A stretch of 64,000 nucleotides of DNA from a virus: the UHGV virus genome UHGV-0240527; one strand, written 5' to 3'. Below the pieces are notes generated by a model. The model did no database searches, had not been told where the DNA came from, and saw only the letters and a program-made list of their open reading frames with translations. Below, piece after piece: positions 2,329 through 30,112 of the stretch. Both the position numbers and the translations under genes were made by a program. Numbering within the stretch: position 1 is the stretch's first letter; each line of letters begins with the position of its first letter.

Positions 2329-2654
2329 TGACTGGTATCACTGCAATCATTGCCATTTTCGCGCTATATAAGGCATATAAAGCCTATAATCTAGCAAATA
2401 AGGCAATCACACAGCAGGTTAGCAATAGCCTTGTAGAAAGCTTTCTAGGGCGTCTCAGTGATGAGCAAATAAAGCGGTTAGAAATGAGCTTCAGATTCAA
2501 AGCGAAAACCTATCAGATAAGTGACATCTTCAAGGATGATTTCCAGTTAGCCGATGATTATAATTCTCTGATAAATGCTTTAAATATCAGTGACTTAAAA
2601 GACTACTACGCTGTAATTGTTCAAGAATTGAGCAAACGAAAACAAAACTGTTGA
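2322..2654 (+). CDS. hypothetical early protein
   Basis: ORF track; short overlap with upstream gene. Confidence 0.5.
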   Translation: MLMTGITAIIAIFALYKAYKAYNLANKAITQQVSNSLVESFLGRLSDEQIKRLEMSFRFKAKTYQISDIFKDDFQLADDYNSLINALNISDLKDYYAVIVQELSKRKQNC

Positions 2655-2743
2655 CACTTGTTTTTAGATAGACTAAATTACACATCAACGGGGAGGGAAT
2701 GACCTTCCCACTAAATAAAGTCCTTAAACTAGGAGATTCTAAA
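2655..2743 (+). promoter_or_regulatory. family B intergenic cassette: TTGACA, 17-bp spacer, TAAATT promoter followed by GGGGAGGGAATGACCTTCCCC UTR hairpin and GGAG RBS
   Basis: cassette occurs four times upstream of early ORFs. Confidence 0.5.
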
Positions 2744-3016
2744 ATGTATACTACTAACAATGGCCGCACTTTGAACGTCACACTACGTCACTATGTAGGT
2801 GGTGTCATGCACTTTGAAGATTTACAAGCTGAACAACATATCTTAGATTGGCAAGTAGCAGGACTCCAAAAAACTGCTACCGGATACGGCAAAAAGATTC
2901 CAACTAGCTGGAAAGTTCACTATGAAGGCCGTTTACGTAGAATTTATCAGGATGTATGTAGTAATAGCACATCAAGTTATATCATAGTAAAAGGTAAAAA
3001 GCTGCATTTAGCATAA
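2744..3016 (+). CDS. hypothetical early protein
   Basis: ORF track frame; start moved from 2699 to the ATG at 2744 that follows the conserved GGAG RBS (2699 lies inside the UTR hairpin). Confidence 0.55.
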   Translation: MYTTNNGRTLNVTLRHYVGGVMHFEDLQAEQHILDWQVAGLQKTATGYGKKIPTSWKVHYEGRLRRIYQDVCSNSTSSYIIVKGKKLHLA

Positions 3017-3101
3017 AGTACTTTACAAGGGGCTTATAGTTCGATAAAGTAAGCCCCAGATAAAGAGCTTTATCACTCAATCCTAAATTGGAGATTCAAA
3101 A
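3017..3101 (+). promoter_or_regulatory. family A intergenic cassette
   Basis: conserved promoter/hairpin/UTR module. Confidence 0.5.
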
Positions 3102-3506
3102 ATGACTATTAATAATCGTGAGTTATCAATCTTAAAAGCACGTTTGACCGTTAACCGGATTAATGTTATTACGTCATCAGCACCGGATGAGACATTGCAC
3201 AACATTATCGGGAAGATTCAAAGTGTTATCTTAGACGTTGAAAACGTAAAAAATTCATTAGCTGACGTTGCAGCAGGTATCACGCTAGACGGTGCACAAT
3301 ATGAAATGGCTGACATGTTAGGCAAATCTAAGGTAATGAATAAAGAGCTTGATTTAAAAATGTTCCGCTTTGCCGTGAAAGTGTGGCTATCTGTCGAGTA
3401 TGACGCAAATTTTGCAATCGCTGACTTTTTCGCAACATGGTTGCAACGTAATTTAACAAATCATGATTTCCGTGATATCTGCGACGTAATTTACGCAGAA
3501 CTTTAA
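3102..3506 (+). CDS. hypothetical early protein
   Basis: ORF track; cassette upstream. Confidence 0.6.
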   Translation: MTINNRELSILKARLTVNRINVITSSAPDETLHNIIGKIQSVILDVENVKNSLADVAAGITLDGAQYEMADMLGKSKVMNKELDLKMFRFAVKVWLSVEYDANFAIADFFATWLQRNLTNHDFRDICDVIYAEL

Positions 3507-12232: not shown

Positions 12233-12283
12233 AGCTTTCTCCTTAGAAAATAAAAAAGGCTCCCGAAGGAGCCTATGAAGATA

Positions 12284-12748
12284 TTACTTTGGGTATACAC
12301 TGTCAAGGTAAATATCAGCTTCCATTCTGCGTCTGTTTTTAAGACCGTTTGAAGTGACCTTCTCACCTTTGACCGTTACCTTGTTCCACCACTGCATAGC
12401 TTCTGCACAACCTACCTTATTACCAGCGTTGTGGCGCTTGATAAATGTAGAGTCCTGCATAGCCGTGATACCGATGTTGTATGTTTCACTAACAAGGGCA
12501 TCAAACTCATTTTGAGTGGTTGGGGTTTTGATTGCTTTGTTGACTGCACTGACAAACTTTTCAACATCAGCAAGAAGATACTGTTCAGCCTGTGCCTCAG
12601 TAATCTTCATACCCATTTTGACAGGTCTTCCATCAATACGGATTGTCCCGTAACCAATTGTTGGGATTCCGGCAGAATCTTTGTAAGCCTCTAACTCCAG
12701 ACCTTCGAAGAACTTAATAGCGTCTAAACCTTTTCTTGAGAGTTGCAT
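12284..12748 (-). CDS. endolysin, GH24 phage lysozyme (T4/P22 gp19-type)
   Basis: N-terminal EGLELEAYKDSAGIPTIGYG matches the catalytic Glu / Asp / Thr region of T4-type lysozymes; size 154 aa. Confidence 0.8.
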   Translation of the reverse strand: MQLSRKGLDAIKFFEGLELEAYKDSAGIPTIGYGTIRIDGRPVKMGMKITEAQAEQYLLADVEKFVSAVNKAIKTPTTQNEFDALVSETYNIGITAMQDSTFIKRHNAGNKVGCAEAMQWWNKVTVKGEKVTSNGLKNRRRMEADIYLDSVYPK

Positions 12749-13632
12749 TACGCCTCCCCTGCTGGGTTAACTGTAACTGTTGCTGCATTGGATGTTACAG
12801 AGCCACCTGCACCAGTAACTACACAGGTGTAGCTTCCTGCATCAGCAGCGGTTGCACCTTCTTTGGTGTAAGTTGCAGTAGTTGCATCGAGGATGTCTTC
12901 CTCACCTTTCTTCCATTGGTAACCTGTCGCACCTGTTGCCACAACATTCAGTGTTAAGGTCTCACCTTCAGTGATTTCTTGATTGGTTGGTTGCTGAGTG
13001 ATTACTGGAAGTGCATTCACAGTCACTGTTGCTGCATCTGAGGTAACACTTGTTCCACCCTCTCCAGATACAACGCAAGTGTATGAACCAGCATCAGAAG
13101 GTGCTACTGACTGTTTTGTGTAAGTTGCAGAATTGGCACTCGGGATATCCTCACCATCCTTCTTCCACTGATATCCAGTGGCGTTAGTTGCTAGAATGCT
13201 TAGAGTAAGTGTGCCACCCTCATTGACTGTTTGACCTGTTGGTTGCTGAGTAATTGCTGGTGGCTTAATAGCATCCTTCAGCTTAGCATTCAACATTGAG
13301 AACGGCTTAACTCTTGCCAACCATTCACAGTAAATAGTGTCAACATCTTTACCATTGATGATTGCATACTGCAAATCCATGAAGAAATCAGCAGTTCTCA
13401 TCTGTGCACCAACACTGTAAAGGAGTTCATCACTAAAAGGAACTTTGTAGTCTGGTTTGTAATCAAACTCCTCAACTTCTGCAATATCAGCTTCAGGCCA
13501 ATATGAGCTATAGGTGAGTGGTAAAATAGCCTCTTGATATGTTCTAAAATCATATCTCTTACCAGCTTTTACGTTTGCAATGAAGCCCTTCACAAACTCT
13601 TTAAAGTCTGGGTAAGTCTTTGCTTTAATCAT
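12748..13632 (-). CDS. protein with N-terminal domain plus two tandem Ig-like repeats
   Basis: two about 90-aa repeats each containing GATGYQWKK..D/E..SYTCVV (Ig-fold signature); N-terminal 120 aa paralogous to the product of 13629-14000. Confidence 0.6.
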   Translation of the reverse strand: MIKAKTYPDFKEFVKGFIANVKAGKRYDFRTYQEAILPLTYSSYWPEADIAEVEEFDYKPDYKVPFSDELLYSVGAQMRTADFFMDLQYAIINGKDVDTIYCEWLARVKPFSMLNAKLKDAIKPPAITQQPTGQTVNEGGTLTLSILATNATGYQWKKDGEDIPSANSATYTKQSVAPSDAGSYTCVVSGEGGTSVTSDAATVTVNALPVITQQPTNQEITEGETLTLNVVATGATGYQWKKGEEDILDATTATYTKEGATAADAGSYTCVVTGAGGSVTSNAATVTVNPAGEA

Positions 13633-14000
13633 TTATTTTCAGCCTCTAAATGTGCGTTTAGTCTAAAATAACCTTTGTGATTCGGAGATACATCACCAAC
13701 AACAATACCTTTAACCTTATAACCTTTACCAATTACATACTGGATATCCATAAGGAATCTTCCAAGACCAACAATATGGAACATTGGATATAATAGATTC
13801 TCAGAGTCTGGAATATTGATTTCGGGTTTGTAGGTGCATTGTTCGATTGTTGGTGTAATATCTTCTTCAGGCCATTTACTGAGTCTCCATGTCAAAGGTG
13901 TTGGGATAACATCATTAATGTTGTACCTTTCACCATTTTGCACGGAATTGATATAGGATTGTAGGAAGCAATAAAAGTCTTTTGCACTCTTAGCTTTCAT
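13629..14000 (-). CDS. hypothetical protein, paralog of N-terminal domain of the Ig-like protein
   Basis: shared motifs (KxxDFxxFxQ..N..G.RY, SxWPEEDI/WPEADI) with 12748-13632. Confidence 0.5.
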   Translation of the reverse strand: MKAKSAKDFYCFLQSYINSVQNGERYNINDVIPTPLTWRLSKWPEEDITPTIEQCTYKPEINIPDSENLLYPMFHIVGLGRFLMDIQYVIGKGYKVKGIVVGDVSPNHKGYFRLNAHLEAENK

Positions 14001-14047
14001 TAAATATCCTTATAAATAGTTAAAGGGGCATCAGCCCCTATTCACAC

Positions 14048-14638
14048 TTAAGCTTTGGTCTTAAGTAGGTTCTTAAGTTTTTTAAGATTCATACTCTCAT
14101 CAAACTTAAAACCAAATCCATTGACATAATCAATGAACTCGGATTTCTTACTGAGTGACAATGCGTAACTCATATCAAAGTTCTTACTTGTTTCTGCGTC
14201 TGGACTAGAGTTCACATCAAATGAAATTTCTGTAGGCTCTTGCTTACTTTTTCTCATATTATCAACCAACAAACATGTATAGTTTGCTGGATAGAAATTT
14301 ACACTACCATCAACGTAGCTGTACTTATTATTATGGATAAGGTTGGAAAATACCTTAAGGAATGTTTCTGAGTCGTGGCAAACAAGTTTGAATTGGCTGC
14401 TCTCTCCAAGCGCAACTAATGAGTACGGGCTTTCACTATCAAAGTCATAATTTGGATTCGATGACGTTACTGTTACACGCATCAAGTTATTAGCAATAGT
14501 CTTCTGTTTAAAAGAATTTGGAACATAGTGAAGACCTCTATCACACTGATTAACTAATTCTTTCAATAGGTCATTTGCATATGGTGAGTTAATTGATACA
14601 GAGCCATCACTATTGTAATTAAAACTTACTGTTAACAT
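14048..14638 (-). CDS. hypothetical protein
   Basis: ORF track; AGGAGA RBS upstream. Confidence 0.5.
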   Translation of the reverse strand: MLTVSFNYNSDGSVSINSPYANDLLKELVNQCDRGLHYVPNSFKQKTIANNLMRVTVTSSNPNYDFDSESPYSLVALGESSQFKLVCHDSETFLKVFSNLIHNNKYSYVDGSVNFYPANYTCLLVDNMRKSKQEPTEISFDVNSSPDAETSKNFDMSYALSLSKKSEFIDYVNGFGFKFDESMNLKKLKNLLKTKA

Positions 14639-15257: not shown

Positions 15258-15629
15258 ATGAAAAACAGAACAAACAAAGGCCAGTTTAAAAAAGGCCAAT
15301 CTGGAAACCCATCTGGAAGACCAAAAGGCTCTCGCAACAAAAGCTCACTTGTAAAAGCTCAACTGACCATTGACAATTCTGCTGAGTTTGCTGCAAAGTT
15401 ATTTGAAGCGATTGTTACAAGGGATGCTGCTAAGCTTGCAGAGTTCGGGTTAAACACAGATGACGTAACCATCAAGAGTATGATTGAGGTCGGTAAAACT
15501 ATCTTTACTCACTCAGCAGGTGAGATGAAAGCACTTGCAGCAGACACTAAGAAGACTCCTGATAATGGTGGTCAACAACAGACAGATAACAAACCAACGT
15601 TCTCTGCTGTAGCGACTCTTAAAAAATAA
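15258..15629 (+). CDS. hypothetical basic protein with N-terminal GNPSGRPKG motif
   Basis: ORF track; lysine/arginine-rich N-terminus; motif read directly, function not assigned. Confidence 0.55.
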   Translation: MKNRTNKGQFKKGQSGNPSGRPKGSRNKSSLVKAQLTIDNSAEFAAKLFEAIVTRDAAKLAEFGLNTDDVTIKSMIEVGKTIFTHSAGEMKALAADTKKTPDNGGQQQTDNKPTFSAVATLKK

Positions 15630-15647
15630 TTTTAAAAGGTGTTGACA

Positions 15648-15688
15648 GACTCTACAAAGTTGCTCTAAAGTCTGTCACATCAAACAAC
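15648..15688 (+). promoter_or_regulatory. candidate promoter (TTGACA) embedded in 9-bp inverted repeat TGACAGACT/AGTCTGTCA
   Basis: inverted repeat arms flank the -35/-10 region upstream of 15711 ORF. Confidence 0.35.
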
Positions 15689-15710
15689 AAATGAGAGAAG
15701 AGAGTAAAAT

Positions 15711-17126
15711 ATGAGCGAATTATTTAAACATGCGCACCTTCATGCAGGTCGAACTGAAAATGGTGCTGTAAACCATACTTCATCAATGTCTGCTCTTGTA
15801 GACTTTTACAAAGCTGCTGGTTCAAGCCGTAGCAATGTAGAAATCTTACCAGACTTGTTCTACAAAGCTTTGCGTGAGGATGTTGATGTTGCAGTTCGTA
15901 TTTTGCTTCATATGCGAGATGTACGAGAAGGTATGGGTGAGCGTAAAGCCTTCAGAACTGTTTTGCTTCAAGCAATTGAAGATAAAGTTTTAGAGCCTAC
16001 ACAGGTTCTTCGCATTATGGATAAGATTGCAGAACTTGGTCGTTTTGATGACTTCAAAATCTTCGTGGGTACTTGTTTCGAGACAGATGCCTTCAAACAT
16101 TTAGAAGCAGCATTACTAGACCCTGCAACAGCAGGTTTGGCGGCTAAGTGGTTACCACGAGTCAAACCACGTCATAAGCAGTTTGTAAAACGTTTCTGCA
16201 AGTTTGCCAACTTGAGCGAGAAAGAGTACCGCACACTGTTATCTGCACTATCTGATACAGTTGAGCAAAAAATCTCTGCTAATGAGTTTGGCAAGATTGA
16301 CTACAGTAAGGTTCCCTCACTTGCTGCTGCACGTTACCAAAAACTGTTTAACCGTAAGGATGGAGAACGTTACAAAGCTTACATTGAGTCCTTATCAAAA
16401 GGTGAGGCTAAGATTAATGCTGGTGCTGTTTACCCATACGATGTGATTAAATCTGTCAAGCATGGTAATGCAGATGTTGCTAATGAGCAGTGGAAAGCAC
16501 TACCAAACTGGATGGCAGAAGGTGAAAACATCTTGTGTATGTCTGATGTATCAAGTTCAATGTCTTGGGTGAATTTTGGCTCCATTACTGCTCTGGATAT
16601 TGGTGTATCACTTGCCTTGTATGTAGCAGAACGCAATACAGGTTGCTTTAAGAATGAGTTGATGGTTTATTCAACAAACCCTCACTTCATCGAACTGAGT
16701 GGTGATTTACGAAACCGTCATCGTCAGGTGATGCGACACGTTGAATATGGCTCAACTAACTTACAAGCAGCTTTTGACCGCATTCTTGAGACAGGCAAAA
16801 GAAACAACTTGACTCAGAAAGATATGCCAAGTAAGCTTATCATCTTCTCCGATATGGAGTTTAATCAGGTTGATGGGGCTAACGGTCGTACAAACTTTGA
16901 AGCAATTCAGAGTAAGTACAAAAAAGCTGGATATGAGATGCCACAACTGGTATTCTGGTACTTAGCAAACCGTAATGGTACTTGCGAAGTATCTGTTAAG
17001 GATAACGGTGTAGCAATGGTATCAGGGTTCTCTCCAGCCACTTTAAAAGCTCTGCTTGGTGGTGAGAAGTTTGACCCAATCAGTGTAATGCTCAAAGCAG
17101 TAATGATTGACCGTTATATCTGGTAA
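15711..17126 (+). CDS. vWA-domain protein with Ro60/TROVE-like architecture (candidate RNA-binding protein)
   Basis: C-terminal MIDAS-like DxSxS (MSDVSSSMSW) and downstream FSDMEF; about 270-aa helical N-terminal region; family assignment is from architecture only. Confidence 0.45.
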   Translation: MSELFKHAHLHAGRTENGAVNHTSSMSALVDFYKAAGSSRSNVEILPDLFYKALREDVDVAVRILLHMRDVREGMGERKAFRTVLLQAIEDKVLEPTQVLRIMDKIAELGRFDDFKIFVGTCFETDAFKHLEAALLDPATAGLAAKWLPRVKPRHKQFVKRFCKFANLSEKEYRTLLSALSDTVEQKISANEFGKIDYSKVPSLAAARYQKLFNRKDGERYKAYIESLSKGEAKINAGAVYPYDVIKSVKHGNADVANEQWKALPNWMAEGENILCMSDVSSSMSWVNFGSITALDIGVSLALYVAERNTGCFKNELMVYSTNPHFIELSGDLRNRHRQVMRHVEYGSTNLQAAFDRILETGKRNNLTQKDMPSKLIIFSDMEFNQVDGANGRTNFEAIQSKYKKAGYEMPQLVFWYLANRNGTCEVSVKDNGVAMVSGFSPATLKALLGGEKFDPISVMLKAVMIDRYIW

Positions 17127-17291: not shown

Positions 17292-17368
17292 CTCTGTTTA
17301 GCTCAGCTTGGTAGAGCGTTCCGTTTGGGGCGGTAAGGCCGGAGGTTCAAGTCCTCCAACAGAGACCA
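17292..17368 (+). tRNA. tRNA-Pro (anticodon UGG)
   Basis: manual cloverleaf: 7-bp acceptor CTCTGTT/AACAGAG, T-loop TTCAAGT, anticodon loop TTTGGGG, CCA encoded. Confidence 0.65.
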
Positions 17369-17375
17369 AATTAAT

Positions 17376-17453
17376 GTTCCAGTAGACAAAATGGTAAAGT
17401 CACCACTCTTTCAAAGTGGATATCTGAGGGTTCAAATCCCTTCTGGAACGCCA
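17376..17453 (+). tRNA. tRNA-Glu (anticodon UUC)
   Basis: 7-bp acceptor GTTCCAG/CTGGAAC, anticodon stem CCACT/AGTGG, loop CTTTCAA, CCA encoded. Confidence 0.7.
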
Positions 17454-17543
17454 GTTTTGACAGAAGACCAATTACAGCAAACTTAATCTACTCATCTGAA
17501 AGTTAATCGGACAAAGAAGATATTTGGTCTGGTCATTAAGAAT

Positions 17544-17620
17544 TGCGGGTATAGAGAAAGGGCGTCTCACATGTCTCATTAGCATGGTATCGGCAGGTTC
17601 GACTCCTGCACCCGCCTCCA
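17544..17620 (+). tRNA. tRNA with CAU anticodon (Met, initiator or Ile2); non-canonical features
   Basis: T-arm GCAGG/CCTGC and 6 of 7 acceptor pairs with 1:72 mismatch; anticodon loop CTCATTA; 3-nt 8/9 linker. Confidence 0.45.
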
Positions 17621-17703
17621 AATTTACAGAAGACCGTTTACAGCAATATTTATTAAATTTTTAGCGGAAAAATTGAAAGATACGGTCTGGTAATACTAAA
17701 CAT

Positions 17704-17780
17704 GGTTAGGAAGCACATAAGGTATGTGCGGTCGCCTGTTAAGCGAATGGCACAGGGTTCGAATCCCTGACTAACCGCCA
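17704..17780 (+). tRNA. tRNA-Asn (anticodon GUU)
   Basis: acceptor GGTTAGG, D-stem GCAC/GTGC, anticodon loop CTGTTAA, T-loop TTCGAAT, CCA encoded. Confidence 0.7.
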
Positions 17781-17849
17781 AATTTAGGAGAGAAGTGATT
17801 GCTCACCGATTTGTAAGGTGCAAGTCCTTAGCCTGAATAGAAATTAAAT

Positions 17850-17937
17850 GTGTCGTTATCCCGTAGATGGTAGCGGTGGGGACTGTAAATCCCTTGTCAT
17901 TGAGACTCGGTAGGTTCGACTCCTACACGGCACACCA
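17850..17937 (+). tRNA. tRNA-Tyr (anticodon GUA), long variable arm
   Basis: acceptor GTGTCGT/ACGGCAC, anticodon stem GGGGA/TCCCT, loop CTGTAAA, 88 nt, CCA encoded. Confidence 0.7.
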
Positions 17938-17942
17938 ATAAA

Positions 17943-18019
17943 GGCTATGTAGTTTAACTGGAGAAAATACTCCCCTGTCACGGGAGATGATGTGAGTTCA
18001 AGTCTCATCGTAGCCGCCA
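17943..18019 (+). tRNA. tRNA-Asp (anticodon GUC)
   Basis: acceptor GGCTATG/CGTAGCC, anticodon stem CTCCC/GGGAG, loop CTGTCAC, CCA encoded. Confidence 0.75.
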
Positions 18020-18448
18020 ATTTTGAGAGGGCTGTTTAGCCCATCCCTTAAAGAGTTCTTACGAGTATTCTTTAAGGGAGCAGAAGACCAAATACAGCAA
18101 GAATGTATGAAATTTCAAGCCAATTTAATTTTGAAAATTTAAAACTTGGTCTGGCTCAACAAATTTACAGAAGGCCGTTTACAGCAAAACTTAAACAATC
18201 TATTTCTCCGGTAAAGAAAAGGCGAAGGTTCGATTCCTTCACTCGGCAGATGTCGAGTTGGTGTAATGGTAGCACTTAAGATGATAAACAACGGTCTGGT
18301 AATTACCTTTGTAGATAAGTTATTAAGCTTACTTGTGAGTATGCGACCACAAAGGGTGAATGGGTAAATTCTAGATTTAAACCCAAAAAGGCACATCGCT
18401 ACAGACCTTAAGCAAGTCTGGGTAGCTTATCTACAAAGATAATTTAAT

Positions 18449-18524
18449 GGAAGTGTAGCAGAATGGTGATGCGGCAGACTTTTAATCTGACAGGCGATGG
18501 GTTCGAATCCCTCCACTTCTACCA
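18449..18524 (+). tRNA. tRNA-Lys (anticodon UUU)
   Basis: acceptor GGAAGTG/CACTTCT, anticodon loop CTTTTAA; T-stem imperfect; paralog of the CUU Lys tRNA. Confidence 0.6.
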
Positions 18525-18528
18525 ATAT

Positions 18529-18605
18529 GGTTCAGTCGCAGATAAGGTAATGCAAGGGTCTCATAAGCCCTATGAATGTGGGTTCGATTCCCATCTGAAC
18601 CTCCA
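18529..18605 (+). tRNA. tRNA with CAU anticodon (Met or Ile2)
   Basis: perfect 7-bp acceptor GGTTCAG/CTGAACC, anticodon stem AGGGT/GCCCT, loop CTCATAA, CCA encoded. Confidence 0.7.
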
Positions 18606-18606
18606 A

Positions 18607-18682
18607 GCTGGTATAGTTAAGAAGGTTATAACACTCCCCTGATAAGGGAACATCGGTGGTTCGATTCCACCTACCAGTACCA
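18607..18682 (+). tRNA. tRNA-Ile (anticodon GAU)
   Basis: acceptor GCTGGTA/TACCAGT, D-stem GTTA/TAAC, anticodon loop CTGATAA, T-arm GGTGG/CCACC, CCA encoded. Confidence 0.75.
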
Positions 18683-18697
18683 ATTTCAATAAAGTTG

Positions 18698-18726
18698 TTG
18701 ACATTGAGATGTGACTACTTTATAGT
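18698..18726 (+). promoter_or_regulatory. sigma70-type promoter inside tRNA array (TTGACA, 17 bp, TATAGT)
   Basis: hexamers and spacing read directly. Confidence 0.55.
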
Positions 18727-18930
18727 AACCTTAGTTTTCGTTGCGTAGCGTCTATTTTGCAAATTTAAAATAAATGCAAACGACAATGTTTTTCTGGCAG
18801 TAGCTTGATAGGCTAAACACCAGTGAGGTCTTCCAATCCCTCATCAAAGAATTTGGCGTACTCGCCCACGGTATGATTAATAAGGTGGGCATCTTTAAGG
18901 GCTTTCTAAGAGAGTCTTTAAAGATAATTA

Positions 18931-19012
18931 CGGGGCGTATCTCAGCGGTCTTCTAAACCGCCGTTAACCGAGTAAGTGGAGTATGCGGGTTCGAGTCCTG
19001 CCGCCTCGACCA
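18931..19012 (+). ncRNA. tRNA-like element: perfect acceptor stem and T-arm but no canonical D-arm; internal hairpin with loop CTTCTAA (UCU)
   Basis: 7-bp acceptor CGGGGCG/CGCCTCG, T-arm GCGGG-TTCGAGT-CCTGC, CCA encoded; body cannot be folded into a standard cloverleaf. Confidence 0.4.
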
Positions 19013-19026
19013 ATTTTGGAGAAATC

Positions 19027-19374
19027 ATGAAAACTTGTATTAGGTGCAAACTTAGCAAGGATGAAAATGATTTCTACATGAAAGATGGTAGGAGAACTCA
19101 TTCATACTGTAAAAAGTGTGTTAATGAGCAAACCATAGAAAGACAAAGAGCACTTAAACTCTTAGCTATTGAGTACAAAGGTGGGGTTTGTCATGATTGT
19201 GGTAAGAAGTATCATCCAGCAGTGTATGACTTCCATCATTTGAATCCTTCAGATAAAGATTTTAACATTGGTCATAGGAAAAGCCTTAAGTTCTCTCAAG
19301 AACTAAAAGATGAACTTGACAAATGTGTTTTGCTATGTTCAAATTGCCATAGGGTAAGACATGCAAAATATTAG
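19027..19374 (+). CDS. HNH family homing endonuclease
   Basis: motifs CxxC..CxxC, DFHHLNPSDKDFNIG and CSNCHRVRH typical of HNH nucleases; start moved to ATG with GGAG RBS (track start is an upstream GTG inside the tRNA-like element). Confidence 0.7.
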   Translation: MKTCIRCKLSKDENDFYMKDGRRTHSYCKKCVNEQTIERQRALKLLAIEYKGGVCHDCGKKYHPAVYDFHHLNPSDKDFNIGHRKSLKFSQELKDELDKCVLLCSNCHRVRHAKY

Positions 19375-19511
19375 TTAGCAGATTACTTAGACGACCTTAG
19401 CGGGTCTTCCTGTAGGGAGGTGGTCTGTATCTCATGTTTTCCAGAACATGTAAATAATCTGAGAAGGGGCTTTACAGTGTTGAGATAATACGGTAAGCTT
19501 CGAATTATAGT

Positions 19512-19594
19512 ATGGGACGATGTTAAGACTCTAAGGCATGAGCAACGGCTTCCAACACCGTTTCAAAGGGGTTCAACTCCTCCGTCCCATGCCA
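19512..19594 (+). ncRNA. tRNA-like element with aberrant anticodon arm (9-nt loop CTTCCAACA containing UCC); possible degenerate tRNA-Gly paralog
   Basis: perfect 7-bp acceptor ATGGGAC/GTCCCAT and T-arm with CCA, but non-canonical D region and loop size. Confidence 0.4.
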
Positions 19595-19607
19595 AAGTCT
19601 TATTAGG

Positions 19608-19695
19608 GGTAGGTAGCGGCTAATGGTAGCCAAACTGTCTTGAAAACAGTTGCCACTGTAGAGATACGGTGAGGGTTCGACTCCTTTACTTACCG
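19608..19695 (+). tRNA. tRNA-Ser (anticodon UGA), class II
   Basis: acceptor GGTAGGT/ACTTACC, anticodon stem ACTGT/ACAGT, loop CTTGAAA, long variable arm, G73; CCA not encoded. Confidence 0.65.
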
Positions 19696-19852
19696 CCTAA
19701 TAAGATTTAAAGCCAAGCTTCATTCGGATGTTGCTTTGGTATCCCTCGTGTATTGTCGTACACACTGATAAAACACCTAGTAGGTGTCACGGAGAAGAGA
19801 TAATATCAAGCTCTCCAAAGGTTCTAGTCACCGGATTAAACAAGACTATGCA

Positions 19853-19875
19853 AAGACCTATTTAGGTCTTTTTAG
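19853..19875 (+). terminator. putative intrinsic terminator within tRNA array
   Basis: AAGACCTA..TAGGTCTT hairpin followed by TTTT. Confidence 0.45.
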
Positions 19876-19952
19876 AGGGCTTCTAAGGTTATTACAGCTT
19901 GTTGTGGAACCTTGTTGCTTAGGTTCTTAGAAGTTCTCTAAAAAGATTTAAT

Positions 19953-20029
19953 GCACCTATAGCCCAACTGGTAGAGGCAGCAGACTTAGAATCTGCTCAG
20001 TGTGAGTTCGAATCTCTCTAGGTGTACCA
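19953..20029 (+). tRNA. tRNA-Leu (anticodon UAG) with short variable arm
   Basis: acceptor GCACCTA/TAGGTGT, anticodon stem GCAGA/TCTGC, loop CTTAGAA, A73, 77 nt, CCA encoded. Confidence 0.6.
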
Positions 20030-20036
20030 AATTAAT

Positions 20037-20112
20037 GCAGGTGTAGCAGAATGGTTATGCGGCTGACTCTTAATCAGTAAGACGATGGGTTCAATTCCCT
20101 CCACCTGTACCA
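20037..20112 (+). tRNA. tRNA-Lys (anticodon CUU)
   Basis: acceptor GCAGGTG/CACCTGT, anticodon stem GCTGA/TCAGT, loop CTCTTAA, CCA encoded. Confidence 0.65.
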
Positions 20113-20118
20113 AACATT

Positions 20119-20194
20119 GGGGATGTAGTTTACATGGTTAAAACATAAGTTTTGCAAACTTAAGTACAGGGTTCAATTCCCTGCTTCTCCACCA
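20119..20194 (+). tRNA. tRNA-Ala (anticodon UGC)
   Basis: G3:U70 wobble pair present in acceptor; D-stem GTTT/AAAC; anticodon stem TAAGT/ACTTA, loop TTTGCAA; CCA encoded. Confidence 0.7.
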
Positions 20195-20200
20195 ATTAGT

Positions 20201-20275
20201 GCATCCATAGTTTAAACGGGAAAATTACAGTCTTCCAAACTGAGGTTGAGGGTTCGATTCCCTCTGGATGCTCCA
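20201..20275 (+). tRNA. tRNA-Gly (anticodon UCC)
   Basis: perfect acceptor GCATCCA/TGGATGC, T-arm GAGGG/CCCTC, anticodon loop CTTCCAA, CCA encoded. Confidence 0.7.
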
Positions 20276-20281
20276 AACAAT

Positions 20282-20358
20282 GCTGCTTTCGTATAATTGG
20301 CTATTACACATCCCTTGTAAGGATGGAAATGCAGGTTCGAGTCCTGTGAGCAGCACCA
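20282..20358 (+). tRNA. tRNA-Thr (anticodon UGU)
   Basis: acceptor GCTGCTT/GAGCAGC, anticodon stem CATCC/GGATG, loop CTTGTAA, CCA encoded. Confidence 0.75.
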
Positions 20359-20454
20359 ATTCAGAGGTCAAGTGAAAGACCGCTTTGAGTCAACTGAAGA
20401 CCGTAACAAATACCACGGAGTTGAGTTAGCGGCACAACTTCAGACCTCTTTCAT

Positions 20455-20529
20455 ACTCGCTTAGTTTATATGGTAAAACATCACCATTACAAGATGAAGA
20501 AAAAGGTTCAAGTCCTTTAGTGAGTACCA
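20455..20529 (+). tRNA. tRNA-Val (anticodon UAC)
   Basis: acceptor ACTCGCT/AGTGAGT, D-stem GTTT/AAAC, anticodon loop ATTACAA, T-arm AAAGG/CCTTT, CCA encoded. Confidence 0.7.
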
Positions 20530-20530
20530 T

Positions 20531-20608
20531 GTTCCAGTATCCCAATTGGCAGAGGATGCAAGCTCAAACCTTGTATTAGTGACGGTTCGAATCCGTCTTG
20601 GAACACCA
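20531..20608 (+). tRNA. tRNA-Leu (anticodon CAA) with short variable arm
   Basis: acceptor GTTCCAG/TTGGAAC, anticodon stem GCAAG/CTTGT, loop CTCAAAC, A73, 78 nt, CCA encoded. Confidence 0.55.
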
Positions 20609-20613
20609 ATTTT

Positions 20614-20686
20614 GCAGGATTAGTTCAAATGGAAAGAGCAACAGTCTACGAAGCTGTTAATAGGGGTTCGAATCCCTTATCCTGCG
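20614..20686 (+). tRNA. tRNA-Arg (anticodon ACG)
   Basis: perfect acceptor GCAGGAT/ATCCTGC, D-stem GTTC/GAGC, anticodon loop CTACGAA; CCA not encoded. Confidence 0.7.
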
Positions 20687-20706
20687 CTAGATAAAAAGGT
20701 GATACT

Positions 20707-20949
20707 ATGCAAACATTAACAGTAGTTGAACATGAAAACTGTGAGAGTATTGAGTTTGTCAGGGTCATTGGTGTTGAACACCACATTTTCTTAAAAGTGG
20801 GATACTTATGTGACCCCGCTAGAGTAGAAAGATTTATACGTGATTGTTTTGGTGGTAGACATCTGAAGAGTGTTATTTTTGAGACAGTTTTACCAGAAGG
20901 TTTAGAAACGAATAATAACATTTACCTCCTTACGAGGATTAGACAATGA
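20707..20949 (+). CDS. hypothetical protein (embedded in tRNA array)
   Basis: ORF track; AAAGGTGA RBS. Confidence 0.45.
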   Translation: MQTLTVVEHENCESIEFVRVIGVEHHIFLKVGYLCDPARVERFIRDCFGGRHLKSVIFETVLPEGLETNNNIYLLTRIRQ

Positions 20950-21503
20950 GATACTTAAAGTATGCTTCATGGATTTTCTTAGCTTTGTTAGAGCCATTTG
21001 CAGCAATCTTAGCAGTTATCTTAGCACCTTTTGTAGTTCCATTCTACAGTGAGAAGAAAGGACACTTACCTTTCGGGTTCAGATGGATGGAGACATATGA
21101 CAACCCAATTGATGGTGATGAAGGTCACGTTAAAAGATGGGCTAATATTAGATGGATTGGTAAGCTGGGTGTCTACATGCAGAGAGTTGGATGGCTCTGG
21201 AGAAACAAAGCTTATAACTTCTCTTACCATGTATTAGGAAGAGATGTAAAAGATGTTACTAAGTGGAAAGGTAATATCAACGTAAGTTCTGACCCCGAAG
21301 ATAATCAGACAGGTTATCTCCTAATGTGGAACAGTAATGCTTGGGGATTATTCGCTTTTATCCCATCAATTAAAATCTTTGGTAAACAATTTTACTGGAG
21401 AATTTATATTGGATGGAAACTAAAAAGTGTTGTCCCAGAAGAAAGAGCATTCTCAAGGGAAAGAGTTATGTTGGCATTCTTTATTCATCCACTGAGAAAG
21501 TAA
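20946..21503 (+). CDS. hypothetical membrane protein (embedded in tRNA array)
   Basis: ORF track; hydrophobic N-terminus WIFLALLEPFAAILAVILAPFVVPF; start overlaps upstream stop. Confidence 0.5.
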   Translation: MRYLKYASWIFLALLEPFAAILAVILAPFVVPFYSEKKGHLPFGFRWMETYDNPIDGDEGHVKRWANIRWIGKLGVYMQRVGWLWRNKAYNFSYHVLGRDVKDVTKWKGNINVSSDPEDNQTGYLLMWNSNAWGLFAFIPSIKIFGKQFYWRIYIGWKLKSVVPEERAFSRERVMLAFFIHPLRK

Positions 21504-21511
21504 AGATTTAA

Positions 21512-21587
21512 AGGGGATTAGTTTACAAGGTTAAAACCTCGGTCTTTGAAATCGAAGAAGTTGGTTCAATTCCAACATCCCCCGCCA
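21512..21587 (+). tRNA. tRNA-Gln (anticodon UUG)
   Basis: unpaired 1:72, G73, D-stem GTTT/AAAC, anticodon stem TCGGT/ATCGA, loop CTTTGAA, CCA encoded. Confidence 0.7.
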
Positions 21588-21589
21588 AT

Positions 21590-21668
21590 GCTCCATTACT
21601 CCAATTGGCAGAGAGGCCAGACTTAAAATCTGTGTTATGTATCGGTTCGAATCCGATATGGAGTACCA
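21590..21668 (+). tRNA. tRNA-Leu (anticodon UAA) with short variable arm
   Basis: acceptor GCTCCAT/ATGGAGT, anticodon loop CTTAAAA, T-arm ATCGG/CCGAT, A73, 79 nt, CCA encoded. Confidence 0.55.
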
Positions 21669-21673
21669 AATTT

Positions 21674-21749
21674 AGCGGTATAGCATAACTGGCAATGCAG
21701 CAGCCTCTGAAGCTGTCCTATTAAGGTTCAAATCCTTATGCCGCTGCCA
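21674..21749 (+). tRNA. tRNA-Gln (anticodon CUG)
   Basis: acceptor AGCGGTA/TGCCGCT, D-stem GCAT/ATGC, anticodon stem GCAGC/GCTGT, loop CTCTGAA, G73, CCA encoded. Confidence 0.7.
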
Positions 21750-21780
21750 CTTCTAAGGATTCTTGCGAGAGTCCTTAAAT

Positions 21781-21856
21781 GTGGCCTTATCATAAATGGT
21801 AATGACCCATGCTGTGAACATGGTCTATACGGGTTCAAATCCCGTAGGTCACCCCA
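21781..21856 (+). tRNA. tRNA-His (anticodon GUG)
   Basis: acceptor GTGGCCT/AGGTCAC, D-stem TCAT/ATGA, anticodon stem CCATG/CATGG, loop CTGTGAA, C73, CCA encoded. Confidence 0.7.
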
Positions 21857-21861
21857 ATTTA

Positions 21862-21936
21862 TAGTCCAAGTAGCTTATATGGTTAAAGCGCGTGTCTGAA
21901 AAACATGAGAAGAGGGTTCAAATCCCACTGGACTAC
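21862..21936 (+). tRNA. tRNA-Phe (anticodon GAA)
   Basis: perfect acceptor TAGTCCA/TGGACTA, anticodon stem CGTGT/ACATG, loop CTGAAAA; 3' terminus ambiguous. Confidence 0.6.
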
Positions 21937-21954
21937 CAATTTCAAAGGTGCTTA

Positions 21955-22689
21955 ATGAAAGAGATGACAGAACAAGGTAAGGAGATTTTTAATCTCTTAA
22001 AAACCGGTAAAGGGTTCTCTAACCCACTGATTACTGGTGCAGCAGTTCTCGGTGGAACCGTAGCTGCTTCTACATCACTTGTAAGCTCTATTAGTTCTGT
22101 AACAGACCCTACAATGAAGGAGAAACTTGTTGCTGCTGGACTTACAACAGTCCTTCTAAACAGCTTTACAACAAGCCTTACAAGCACTACAGCAACTACT
22201 AAAACTCTGACAGACTACGGTCAAAAGTCTATTGATGAGTTTTCATCACGTATGCAGGTAGCAAAGGGATACTCCAATGTTATGGGTGCAGCAGGAGAAC
22301 AAGTTGGTTGTACACCATTCAGTGGTATTATGGGTGTTGCTACAGAGTATGGTCAAAAAGCTATTGACATGATGAACAGTACACTGGATAGTGTTAATGG
22401 TGTATTAAGTGACTTACAAGATGCTATTGATAAGGGTCTTGATACTGTTTCTGATTTAGCTAATCAGGCTGTTAGTAAGATTAATGAAGGTATTTCAAAG
22501 ATTACAGCTTATGCAGATGAAGTTGTGCAGATGATTGAAGAAGAAGCTGCCCTTATTGCAGAGTACCTTAAAACGAATATCAATGGGTTCTTAGCAGGTA
22601 TCTTACCAGACTGGTTTGATGATGCTTGTAAAACTGGTGTAATTGACACTATTGCAACACCAGAAATGAAGAACGCATTACAGAAATAA
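21955..22689 (+). CDS. hypothetical Ser/Thr-rich protein (embedded in tRNA array)
   Basis: ORF track frame; start moved to ATG 21955 after AAAGGTG RBS because the track start overlaps tRNA-Phe. Confidence 0.5.
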   Translation: MKEMTEQGKEIFNLLKTGKGFSNPLITGAAVLGGTVAASTSLVSSISSVTDPTMKEKLVAAGLTTVLLNSFTTSLTSTTATTKTLTDYGQKSIDEFSSRMQVAKGYSNVMGAAGEQVGCTPFSGIMGVATEYGQKAIDMMNSTLDSVNGVLSDLQDAIDKGLDTVSDLANQAVSKINEGISKITAYADEVVQMIEEEAALIAEYLKTNINGFLAGILPDWFDDACKTGVIDTIATPEMKNALQK

Positions 22690-22691
22690 AT

Positions 22692-22784
22692 GGAAGATTA
22701 ACCCTAAAAGGTAAGGGAGCAGTTTGCTAAACTGCCAGTAGCTGAGAAATCGGTGTACCAGTTCAAGTCTGGTATCTTCCTCCA
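22692..22784 (+). tRNA. tRNA-Ser (anticodon GCU), class II
   Basis: perfect acceptor GGAAGAT/ATCTTCC, anticodon stem GCAGT/ACTGC, loop TTGCTAA, about 21-nt variable arm, CCA encoded. Confidence 0.7.
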
Positions 22785-22788
22785 ATTT

Positions 22789-22864
22789 GAATCCGTGACA
22801 GAAATGGCTATGTGCCTGTCTGCAAAACAGGTTTATAAGGGTTCGAGTCCCTTCGGATTCTCCA
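22789..22864 (+). tRNA. tRNA-Cys (anticodon GCA)
   Basis: perfect acceptor GAATCCG/CGGATTC, anticodon stem CCTGT/ACAGG, loop CTGCAAA, U73, CCA encoded. Confidence 0.75.
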
Positions 22865-28594: not shown

Positions 28595-28972
28595 ATGGCA
28601 TATCAAGGTTTTACTAAGTTAGGTAACAGAGAACCTCTGAATGATATCATTCTTTGGGAACAAATTACCCCAACAGGCCACTCTCGTAAAGAGTACACTC
28701 CAGTTGCTTCAACAGAATACCGTGTAGGTGAAGTTCTGAAAGCAGATGGTACTAAGGTACAAGCTGGAGAAGAAGCCCAAGCAGACTCTGTATGTATCGT
28801 TAATTTCTACGCAGACCTGCAACTGTCTTATCATGGTCAGTTAAAAGTGGTAGGTATCCACCGTGATGCAGAACTGAAAGACCTGCTTACTCTTGAAGCG
28901 AGCGTTGATGCTGCTGCCGTCAAGACAGCTCTGGCTGCTAAAGGTATTGATTTCGTACCAACTGGCCTGTAA
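28595..28972 (+). CDS. putative head decoration protein (lambda gpD-like position)
   Basis: 125-aa ORF between protease and major capsid gene; assignment by synteny only. Confidence 0.4.
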   Translation: MAYQGFTKLGNREPLNDIILWEQITPTGHSRKEYTPVASTEYRVGEVLKADGTKVQAGEEAQADSVCIVNFYADLQLSYHGQLKVVGIHRDAELKDLLTLEASVDAAAVKTALAAKGIDFVPTGL

Positions 28973-29005: not shown

Positions 29006-30112
29006 ATGTTGACTAATTCTGAAAAAAGCAGATTTTTCCTTGCTGACCTGACTGGTGAAGTCCAGTCTATCCCAAATACTTATGGGTATATTTCCAACTT
29101 AGGTCTGTTCCGTTCAGCACCAATCACCCAAACTACTTTCCTTATGGACTTGACTGATTGGGATGTTAGCTTGCTTGATGCGGTAGACCGCGATAGCCGT
29201 AAAGCAGAGACTAGCGCACCTGAGCGTGTTCGTCAAATCAGCTTCCCAATGATGTACTTCAAAGAAGTTGAAAGCATTACTCCTGATGAGATTCAGGGTG
29301 TACGTCAGCCAGGAACTGCAAACGAACTGACTACTGAAGCTGTAGTACGTGCTAAGAAGCTGATGAAGATTCGTACCAAGTTCGATATTACTCGTGAGTT
29401 CCTGTTTATGCAAGCTCTGAAGGGTAAAGTTGTTGATGCTCGTGGTACTCTGTATGCTGACCTGTACAAGCAGTTCGACGTTGAGAAGAAGACTGTTTAC
29501 TTCGACCTTGACAACCCTAATGCTGACATTGACGCTGCTATTGAAGAACTGCGTATGCACATGGAAGACGAAGCTAAGACTGGCACTGTAATCAACGGTG
29601 AAGAAATTCACGTAGTTGTTGACCGCTTATTCTTCAGCAAACTGGTTAAACACCCTAAGATTCGTGACGCTTATCTTGCACAGCAGACTCCGCTGGCTTG
29701 GCAACAGATTACTGGTTCTCTGAGAACTGGTGGTACTGACGGCGTTCAGGCTCACATGAACACTTTCTACTACGGTGGTGTTAAGTTTGTCCAGTACAAC
29801 GGTAAGTTCAAAGACAAGCGTGGTAAGGTTCACACTCTGGTGAGCATTGATAGTGTAGCAGCAACTGTTGGTGTAGGTCATGCTTTCCCTAACGTTTCTA
29901 TGCTTGGTGAAGCTAACAACATCTTCGAAGTGGCATATGGTCCATGCCCTAAGATGGGTTATGCAAATACACTTGGTCAGGAACTGTACGTATTCGAATA
30001 CGAAAAAGACCGTGACGAAGGTATTGACTTTGAAGCTCACTCTTACATGCTGCCATACTGCACACGTCCTCAGTTGCTGGTAGACGTTCGTTCTGACGCT
30101 AAACCAGACTAA
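29006..30112 (+). CDS. major capsid protein (lambda gpE-like)
   Basis: 368-aa ORF with strong GGAG RBS in the canonical position after protease/decoration genes; family assignment by size and synteny, no search. Confidence 0.6.
   Translation: MLTNSEKSRFFLADLTGEVQSIPNTYGYISNLGLFRSAPITQTTFLMDLTDWDVSLLDAVDRDSRKAETSAPERVRQISFPMMYFKEVESITPDEIQGVRQPGTANELTTEAVVRAKKLMKIRTKFDITREFLFMQALKGKVVDARGTLYADLYKQFDVEKKTVYFDLDNPNADIDAAIEELRMHMEDEAKTGTVINGEEIHVVVDRLFFSKLVKHPKIRDAYLAQQTPLAWQQITGSLRTGGTDGVQAHMNTFYYGGVKFVQYNGKFKDKRGKVHTLVSIDSVAATVGVGHAFPNVSMLGEANNIFEVAYGPCPKMGYANTLGQELYVFEYEKDRDEGIDFEAHSYMLPYCTRPQLLVDVRSDAKPD

Follow-up and report, generated by a model that had tools for sequence, protein, structure and literature searches.

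The DNA analysed here (the window, 64,000 nucleotides of the viral genome UHGV-0240527) carries two similar genes directly before an endolysin gene, the longer of them extended by Ig-like domains, which raises the question of what such a pair does beside a lysis gene. With a probability of roughly 0.9, the 294-aa product is the hexamer decoration protein (Hex-Dec) of Felixounavirus, and the 123-aa product is an old duplicate of its capsid-binding domain (CapBD) that most likely serves as an accessory late protein. The window belongs to Felixounavirus, with 95-96% nucleotide identity to genomes of that genus (megablast). Both open reading frames were found on the minus strand as the earlier note had read them, and their position directly upstream of the endolysin was borne out. 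The features of the locus and of the two related capsid genes are as follows.

14025..14038, minus strand: GC-rich hairpin GGGGCTGATGCCCC, set between the paralog and a 196-aa gene upstream; 5' boundary of the unit
13629..14000, minus strand: stand-alone CapBD paralog, 123 aa, 14.2 kDa, pI 6.8 (BLASTP, phmmer, Foldseek)
12748..13632, minus strand: Hex-Dec ortholog, 294 aa, 31.5 kDa (PDB, phrog_3995 and Felix O1 ORF36 matches)
12284..12748, minus strand: GH24 endolysin, last gene of the three-gene unit (PF00959, E 1.2e-40; phrog_7 endolysin)
12257..12274, minus strand: intrinsic terminator directly 3' of the endolysin (scan: AGGCTCCTTCGGGAGCCT then TTTTTATTTT)
28595..28972, plus strand: beta-tulip trimeric decoration protein (Dec), the second capsid decoration (9NCF_J, E 5.5e-79; 9C2D_J, E 5.1e-72)
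29006..30112, plus strand: major capsid protein (MCP), by orthology the binding partner of Hex-Dec (9NCF_A, the Bas63 MCP, E 2.8e-248)

The identity of the 294-aa protein was established by searches of the PDB with phmmer, in which it matched the Hex-Dec of phage Bas63 (9NCF_S, E 7.6e-248) and gp20 of phage Sf14 (9C2D_S, E 4.3e-166). The whole protein also matched phrog_3995 (E 2e-171), and ORF36 of Felix O1 equals it in length (294 aa) and position. Its orthologs are thus the Hex-Dec proteins of Ounavirinae, namely Bas63 (9NCF chain S), Sf14 gp20 (9C2D and 9C3A, chain S) and Felix O1 gp36, which share with it the type of Ig domain, the position beside the endolysin, the cognate MCP and the beta-tulip Dec. 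These orthologs are Hoc-like monomers that plug the 60 pentamer-proximal hexamer centres of a T=9 capsid (PMC12609058; PMC11821841). Virion proteomics, which the earlier note had proposed as a check, is positive for the orthologs: Sf14 gp20 was detected in virions by mass spectrometry (PMC11821841), as was Felix O1 gp36 (31.6 kDa, 44% coverage). The 294-aa protein is therefore this phage's copy of an already published, Hoc-like capsid decoration protein and is ordinary for its group. For the phage of the window, we infer capsid binding from these orthologs, to which the identity is ~96% in CapBD and ~99% in MCP.

The protein consists of one N-terminal and two C-terminal domains.

13267..13632, minus strand: CapBD, Hex-Dec aa 1-122, with Arg79 and Arg107 (alignment with Bas63)
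13012..13263, minus strand: Ig-like domain 1, aa 124-207 (Pfam Ig_3, Ig_2 and I-set; AlphaFold2; alignment with Bas63 Ig1)
12760..13011, minus strand: Ig-like domain 2, aa 208-291 (matches the last, fourth, Ig of Bas63 Hex-Dec)

In the phmmer alignment, CapBD and the first 122 residues of Bas63 Hex-Dec are near-identical; the dN/dS of CapBD is 0.03-0.08. The earlier note had called this part a non-structural-looking module, but it is in fact a capsid-binding domain of resolved structure (9NCF_S, 9C2D_S). In Sf14, Asp221 of the MCP is salt-bridged to two arginines, R79 and R107 (PMC11821841). Both arginines are present in the Hex-Dec of the window and invariant in the alignment (A2), and the window MCP, near-identical to that of Bas63, retains Asp221, which makes it the cognate HK97-fold MCP of a T=9 capsid. 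In the AlphaFold2 model of the full-length protein, the CapBD part was poor (pLDDT 30-57) and was set aside as a basis for surface analysis; the poor model is consistent with the statement of the Sf14 authors that AlphaFold mis-predicts CapBD (PMC11821841).

The two tandem Ig repeats announced by the earlier note were confirmed by Pfam and AlphaFold2, although each measures ~84 aa rather than ~90. They share 68% identity in an 82-aa alignment (E 8e-37). Pfam placed Ig_3 (80.8 bits, cut-off 30), Ig_2 (66.1 bits, cut-off 27) and I-set (57.4 bits, cut-off 23.7) on two stretches each, residues 125-290 were predicted as two beta-sandwiches (pLDDT ~95), and Foldseek matched the predicted pair to tandem Ig structures such as those of Robo, titin and MALT1 (E 1e-14). 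These scores, model and structural matches rule out a compositional or low-complexity artefact. Tandem Repeats Finder detected no DNA-level tandem repeat and the two Ig-coding stretches are just 68% identical in DNA, so that a recent tandem duplication can be rejected and the duplication of the Ig domain is old. Residues 205-292 are almost identical to residues 372-458 of Bas63 and less like its residues 205-290; the second Ig domain of the window thus corresponds to the last one of Bas63, and the middle repeats are absent here. The number of C-terminal Ig-like domains, one to four in this family, is the sole difference between the window protein and its orthologs: two in the window and Felix O1, three in Sf14, four in Bas63 and one in many others. 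Of the cell-surface binding module that the earlier note had suggested, what survives is a proposed role of the exposed Ig domains as cell-surface binders, by analogy with T4 Hoc.

On the minus strand the genes run from the paralog through Hex-Dec to the endolysin, the first two joined by an ATGA overlap and the endolysin ATG overlapping the stop codon of Hex-Dec (TAATG). The hairpin GGGGCTGATGCCCC at the 5' boundary is a listed rho-independent terminator of Felix O1 (PMC3185647 Table 2), and in phage Barry a terminator is annotated at the equivalent place after the endolysin. Hex-Dec lies outside the structural module, ~15 kb from MCP and on the opposite strand, so that the suggestion of a decoration protein encoded away from that module proved correct. 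The arrangement, which had been thought unusual, is not: the locus is kept in Barry, VpaE1, Sf14, Felix O1 and the Erwinia phage Fifi318, and Felixounavirus, Mooglevirus and Kolesnikvirus all keep the decoration gene followed by the endolysin. The distance of the decoration gene from the morphogenesis genes was remarked on for Felix O1 in 2010, and the same remote position for Bas63 in 2025 (PMC12609058).

Two known systems resemble Hex-Dec. Like T4 Hoc, it is a non-essential monomer at hexamer centres with an acidic Ig string on a small capsid-binding domain, and the PHROG families of Hoc-like head decoration match its Ig region only (aa 120-292; phrog_2973, E 4e-28). The capsid-binding domain of Hoc is C-terminal, whereas that of Hex-Dec is N-terminal, and the two differ in topology and are unrelated in sequence (PMC12609058); the 294-aa protein thus has no homolog of the domain that follows the Ig domains in the Hoc family. 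On its prolate T=13 head Hoc occupies every hexamer; on the T=9 head Hex-Dec is confined to the pentamer-proximal ones. T5 pb10 (5LXK, 5LXL, 8ZVI) is likewise a dispensable monomer at hexamer centres, and its Ig domain is homologous (5LXK, E 2.7e-12; 8ZVI, E 1.9e-12), with the match confined to aa 128-207. It differs in having a capsid-binding bundle of five helices (~75 aa), a single Ig domain and no stand-alone paralog, and PDB searches found no sequence similarity between its N-terminal domain (5LXL) and the ounavirus CapBD, which places Hex-Dec outside the pb10 family. For CapBD and the paralog, a word-indexed search for remote homologs returned ounavirus proteins only. An exhaustive profile search gave only 13 cluster representatives among 1.84 billion proteins; in these CapBD stood alone or bore one Ig/Big_2 domain or two, and a Lys/Ser-rich tail occurred once. 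CapBD carries Ig domains of the I-set type in the ounaviruses of enterobacteria and, in Erwinia phages, a Big_2 domain.

Based on the orthologs, the following course is proposed. After capsid assembly, one Hex-Dec monomer would bind at each pentamer-proximal (quasi-3-fold) hexamer centre of the T=9 head, giving ~60 copies per head. The N-terminal CapBD of ~120 aa would be the inserted part, anchored by salt bridges from Arg79 and Arg107 to MCP Asp221, and the two flexible, acidic Ig-like domains would project into the solvent, where, probably like those of T4 Hoc, they would adhere weakly to glycans or to surfaces, or else modulate the aggregation of particles. The paralog, Hex-Dec and the endolysin would share one translationally coupled late unit because all three have late functions, and their order would be ancestral in Ounavirinae. 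The 123-aa gene would be an old tandem duplicate of CapBD alone that kept the fold under purifying selection and lost the capsid-contact arginines.

What remains new is this Ig-less paralog, which corresponds to Felix O1 ORF37 and Sf14 gp21 (YP_009618566) and falls in phrog_4463. It is neither mentioned nor modelled in the structure papers on Bas63 and Sf14, the latter of which tabulates selected proteins only (PMC12609058; PMC11821841), and the Sf14 supplement makes no mention of gp21. The paralogy read by the earlier note holds: the 123-aa protein shares 38% identity and 55% positives with CapBD, the first ~120 residues of the longer protein, over 101 aa (BLASTP, E 5e-17), and each of the two proteins matches the PHROG family of the other (phrog_4463 and phrog_3995). 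In the PDB, phmmer found 9NCF_S and 9C2D_S only (E 4e-12), even at E up to 1, the profile of the paralog and CapBD likewise matched no other chain, and the same two chains were the sole significant Foldseek matches of its AlphaFold2 model (E 1e-4, TM 0.58). The paralog thus belongs to the CapBD family by homology and by fold, the fold being judged on a model of moderate confidence (pLDDT 63.7). The chain stops after CapBD, displays no Ig domain and has no match in Pfam; its sole PHROG family is of the unknown-function class. In all 16 paralog sequences, the residue aligned to R79 is Gly and that aligned to R107 is Asn, Gln, His or Arg, so the pair of capsid-contacting arginines is absent from the paralog. 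Ig-bearing relatives mostly retain Arg or Lys at both positions.

The most likely identity of the paralog is that of a late accessory protein which the phage can dispense with, and not of a stoichiometric component of the virion. As to its role, the leading guess, of low confidence, is that it interacts weakly or transiently with Hex-Dec or with the hexamers of the capsid. In Felix O1, the expression of ORF36 and of ORF37 is maximal at 60 min. The neighbor-joining tree of such short sequences is unreliable for the timing of the duplication, and the conclusion is limited to the absence of the CapBD paralog from Kolesnikvirus.

That the paralog is a functionless duplicate in slow decay seems unlikely. 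Its dN/dS (0.18-0.5) exceeds that of CapBD by 4 to 10 times, and the loss of the contact arginines, together with a 226-bp internal deletion shared by ~19-20 records of a single clade that has kept Hex-Dec intact, would suit such a fate. Yet the value against Sf14, 0.18 at a dS of ~1.1, indicates clear purifying selection, and the open reading frame is intact at full length in 233 of the 253 ounavirus records, across three genera. The gene also still has a Shine-Dalgarno sequence of its own and remains coupled to the gene that follows it. P0099, a stand-alone relative of uncultured origin, is still an open reading frame of 122 aa although it is only 45-48% identical.

It is similarly doubtful that the paralog is a functional second hexamer ligand, whether by filling the 20 true-3-fold hexamers, which are closed to Hex-Dec, or by transiently capping centres during assembly. 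As a transient cap, it would set where and when Hex-Dec gets installed. Its use as a second, Ig-less decoration on the true-3-fold hexamers, through which the two paralogs would fill all 80 centres, is taken by itself quite improbable. The CapBD fold and the late co-expression with Hex-Dec speak for it, and a monomer on a true 3-fold axis would be blurred by icosahedral averaging. The altered contact residues could also suit the shifted geometry of Asp221 at true-3-fold hexamers, as seen in Sf14 (PMC11821841). Nevertheless, the other hexamers are without reported density in both Bas63 and Sf14, the Bas63 map showing none on hexamers other than Hex-Dec's (PMC12609058; PMC11821841). The Felix O1 virion list from mass spectrometry (coverage of at least 25%) does not contain ORF37, though a smaller protein of 9.7 kDa was detected there; the paper on phage wV8 deals with the tail fibre alone. 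Given the coverage threshold, the selective Sf14 table and the averaging, this negative virion evidence is weak. Moreover, the clade with the internal deletion has naturally lost the paralog and keeps Hex-Dec, and a whole genus, Kolesnikvirus, does without it; REP11 and vB_CECAV_041 are examples of natural phages with a deleted paralog. An accessory late protein remains the preferred reading of the paralog.

For the pair as a whole, it is very improbable that the two proteins form a lysis accessory, that is, a non-virion module that binds the cell envelope and works with the adjacent endolysin, in line with the cell-surface binding idea of the earlier note. The translational coupling to the endolysin gene, the lack of a holin next to the Felix O1 lysin and the possibility that Ig-like domains bind carbohydrate would agree with such a role; against it, mass spectrometry and cryo-EM both put the orthologs in the virion, neither sequence has an evident signal peptide or transmembrane segment, and neither protein matches a lysis family in Pfam or PHROG. 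A tail protein, as the 294-aa product is labelled in many records ("putative tail protein"), in the category of phrog_3995 ("tail") and in the Felix O1 genome paper ("major tail protein"), and as weaker PHROG matches to Ig-bearing major tail proteins might suggest, is hardly credible, since those matches are limited to the Ig region (aa 96-208), the orthologs sit at the centres of capsid hexamers in the published cryo-EM maps (PMC12609058; PMC11821841), and the Bas63 authors call the label a mis-annotation (PMC12609058).

For the orthologs, the capsid-bound structure, the presence in virions, the odd genomic position and the correction of the tail label are already in print. The practical value of the present result is therefore one of correct annotation, as capsid decoration and not tail, with the phage of the window as a variant with two Ig domains. 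CapBD is a rare modular anchor and may interest designers of phage display on T=9 heads. If the paralog binds capsids, it would offer a natural example of decoration proteins that discriminate between quasi-equivalent hexamers; and if it is indeed a second hexamer ligand, the two genes would be a sub-functionalised pair of decoration paralogs, undescribed for any tailed phage.

The 294-aa protein belongs to the ounavirus Hex-Dec/gp20 family, and every testable defining feature of that family was found for it. Its gene lies between those of a small paralog and an endolysin, and the features concerned are as follows.

14038..14025, minus strand: GC hairpin GGGGCTGATGCCCC, between the three-gene unit and the upstream 196-aa gene
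14000..13629, minus strand: paralog, 123 aa
13632..12748, minus strand: Hex-Dec, 294 aa
12748..12284, minus strand: GH24 endolysin, 154 aa (PF00959, E 1.2e-40; phrog_7)
12274..12257, minus strand: strong intrinsic terminator, directly 3' of the endolysin
28595..28972: beta-tulip decoration protein (Dec), a partner protein
29006..30112: major capsid protein (MCP), also a partner protein, near-identical to that of Bas63, D221 included

The three open reading frames are consecutive, the paralog stop codon overlapping the Hex-Dec start (ATGA) and the Hex-Dec stop that of the endolysin (TAATG), with a Shine-Dalgarno sequence at each start. A sequence identical to the hairpin was given as a terminator in Felix O1 (PMC3185647). 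The 196-aa gene directly upstream (14048-14638, minus strand) belongs to phrog_4034 (unknown function), no Pfam family was found for it, and its position is kept across Felixounavirus, Mooglevirus, and Kolesnikvirus. The dS values against Felix O1, Barry, and VpaE1 are very uneven across 12284-14000 (paralog, 0.04-0.08; the N-terminal capsid-binding domain of Hex-Dec, CapBD, 0.17-0.52; endolysin, 0.47-0.61), which suggests recombination breakpoints within the operon. Divergent from the unit, a DUF5681 ORF (123 aa) and then a 471-aa DUF2828/DUF7788 protein, annotated as "RNA-binding protein" in related phage records, occupy 15258-17126 (plus strand), just upstream of 25 clustered tRNA genes (17292-22864, plus strand) that lie between the early/late divergent region and the structural module.

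The region of the three genes shares 95-96% DNA identity with many Felixounavirus genomes, e.g., KhF1, KhF2, nataliec, and Barry, and the paralog, Hex-Dec, and endolysin correspond to ORF37, ORF36, and ORF35 of Felix O1 and to gp21, gp20, and gp19 of Sf14. In sequence searches of the PDB, the long protein matched chain S of 9NCF, the 460-aa "Immunoglobulin-like domain protein" of Bas63 (E 7.6e-248), and chain S of 9C2D/9C3A from Sf14 (372 aa, E 4.3e-166). The Bas63 ortholog, for which the name Hex-Dec was introduced, was bound only to the facet-edge hexamers of the T=9 head, its Ig-like domains were unresolved in the map, and its gene was placed >10 kb beyond the structural module (PMC12609058). 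The same paper reports that most genomes mis-annotate Hex-Dec as a tail protein and that Ig domain number in felixounaviruses ranges from one to four (PMC12609058). The same picture was obtained for Sf14 gp20, which was found in virions by mass spectrometry; its CapBD comprises the N-terminal 118 residues, of which Arg79 and Arg107 are salt-bridged to Asp221 in three of the six capsid subunits (PMC11821841). Both arginines are present in the window protein, whose predicted mass is 31.5 kDa; Felix O1 gp36 (31.6 kDa) had already been found in virions with 44% coverage (PMC3185647). Its Ig1 aligns with Bas63 Ig1 and its Ig2 with Bas63 Ig4; the window protein is the two-Ig length variant also found in Felix O1.

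Every point of the earlier note's observation held, the paralogous pair and the two tandem Ig-like domains included, with repeat length alone corrected. Over the ~100 N-terminal residues of the long protein, the paralog is 38% identical to it (E 5e-17), and each matches the other's PHROG family. The repeats (residues ~124-207 and ~208-291; 68% mutual identity, E 8e-37) score well over the curated thresholds of Pfam Ig_3, Ig_2, and I-set, and are about 84 aa long instead of the about 90 aa first given. AlphaFold2 predicted both as beta-sandwiches (pLDDT about 95), and PDB entries with tandem Ig domains matched the model (E 1e-14). Each domain has a single cysteine and therefore no canonical Ig disulfide. 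With a shallow alignment, AlphaFold2 failed on the CapBD (aa 1-122), where pLDDT was 30-57 against about 95 in the Ig domains. A mismatch between the density and the AlphaFold model of this domain was likewise noted in the Sf14 paper (PMC11821841). The N-terminal module was wrongly taken as non-structural: it is this CapBD, as mapped in Sf14 gp20. The second guess, that of a decoration protein whose gene stands apart from the structural genes, was right. The Ig-gene finding is real, though its main content was already in print; in the literature searched, a Hoc-like protein in Ounavirinae was mentioned only in the Bas63 and Sf14 papers (PMC12609058; PMC11821841).

As in the orthologs, about 60 Hex-Dec monomers per head would plug the centers of pentamer-proximal hexamers via the CapBD. 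Hex-Dec resembles T4 Hoc and T5 pb10 in how it works, but it belongs to neither family: its likeness to Hoc-like PHROG families and to pb10 (matched through the pb10 Ig domain, 5LXK) does not extend beyond the Ig region, the domain order of Hoc is reversed, and the N-terminal five-helix domain of pb10 has no similarity to the CapBD. The Ig domains are acidic (pI ~4.1 per domain), and by analogy such a string may provide Hoc-like weak surface or glycan adhesion, or control aggregation. Expression of Felix O1 ORF36 and ORF37 is maximal late (PMC3185647). For the linkage to the endolysin, the best reading is a common late timing in a gene order that is ancestral; Erwinia ounavirus Fifi318 (Kolesnikvirus, locus L009) likewise has the order upstream gene, CapBD-Big_2 protein, and lysin.

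The small paralog is mentioned in neither the Bas63 nor the Sf14 paper (PMC12609058; PMC11821841). It is homologous to the CapBD: by sequence only 9NCF_S and 9C2D_S matched in the PDB (E 4e-12), and Foldseek with its AlphaFold2 model of moderate confidence (pLDDT 63.7, pTM 0.67) returned the same chains (E 1e-4, TM 0.58). The gene is intact in 233 of 253 ounavirus records (Felixounavirus, Mooglevirus, Suspvirus), and no relatives outside these ounaviruses were found in an index of 5.8 billion proteins; a stand-alone relative from an uncultured source, P0099, is 45-48% identical. Against Sf14, dN/dS is 0.18 for the paralog, 0.04 for the CapBD, and 0.08 for the lysin, i.e., the paralog is under purifying selection, looser than that on the CapBD. 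All paralogs carry Gly at the Arg79 position and Asn, Gln, His, or Arg at the Arg107 position. A basic residue is mostly kept at these positions in Ig-bearing relatives. The paralog is near neutral (pI 6.8) and the CapBD acidic (pI 5.0). An intact copy is missing from about 19 to 20 of these 253 records, and Kolesnikvirus lacks the gene. The three Felixounavirus records examined (REP11, vB_CECAV_041, and Z31) share an internal deletion of 226 bp (window 13929-13702); Hex-Dec is intact in the first two (293 aa in REP11, 210 aa in vB_CECAV_041) and split into two ORFs in Z31. The paralog is not essential.

It is probably not a stoichiometric virion component either: Felix O1 ORF37 is absent from the virion MS list, though a 9.7-kDa protein was detected (PMC3185647), and no density was reported by cryo-EM at the remaining hexamers (PMC12609058; PMC11821841). 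Alternatively, it may occupy the 20 true-3-fold hexamers, which is possible because a monomer on a 3-fold axis would be blurred by icosahedral averaging and the MS evidence on it is thin. We read the paralog as an accessory late protein, dispensable and descended from the capsid anchor.

An exhaustive profile search yielded only 13 proteins at E ≤ 1e-3 among 1.84 billion cluster representatives, either stand-alone CapBD copies or a CapBD followed by I-set-type Ig, a Big_2/Big-like domain, or a Lys/Ser-rich tail. The distant relatives, at 2501-3115 of the Fifi318 locus and proteins P0101-P0105, carry the Big_2/Big-like domain or the Lys/Ser-rich tail in place of I-set-type Ig. The CapBD is therefore a rare, modular anchor that has exchanged one kind of display domain for another.
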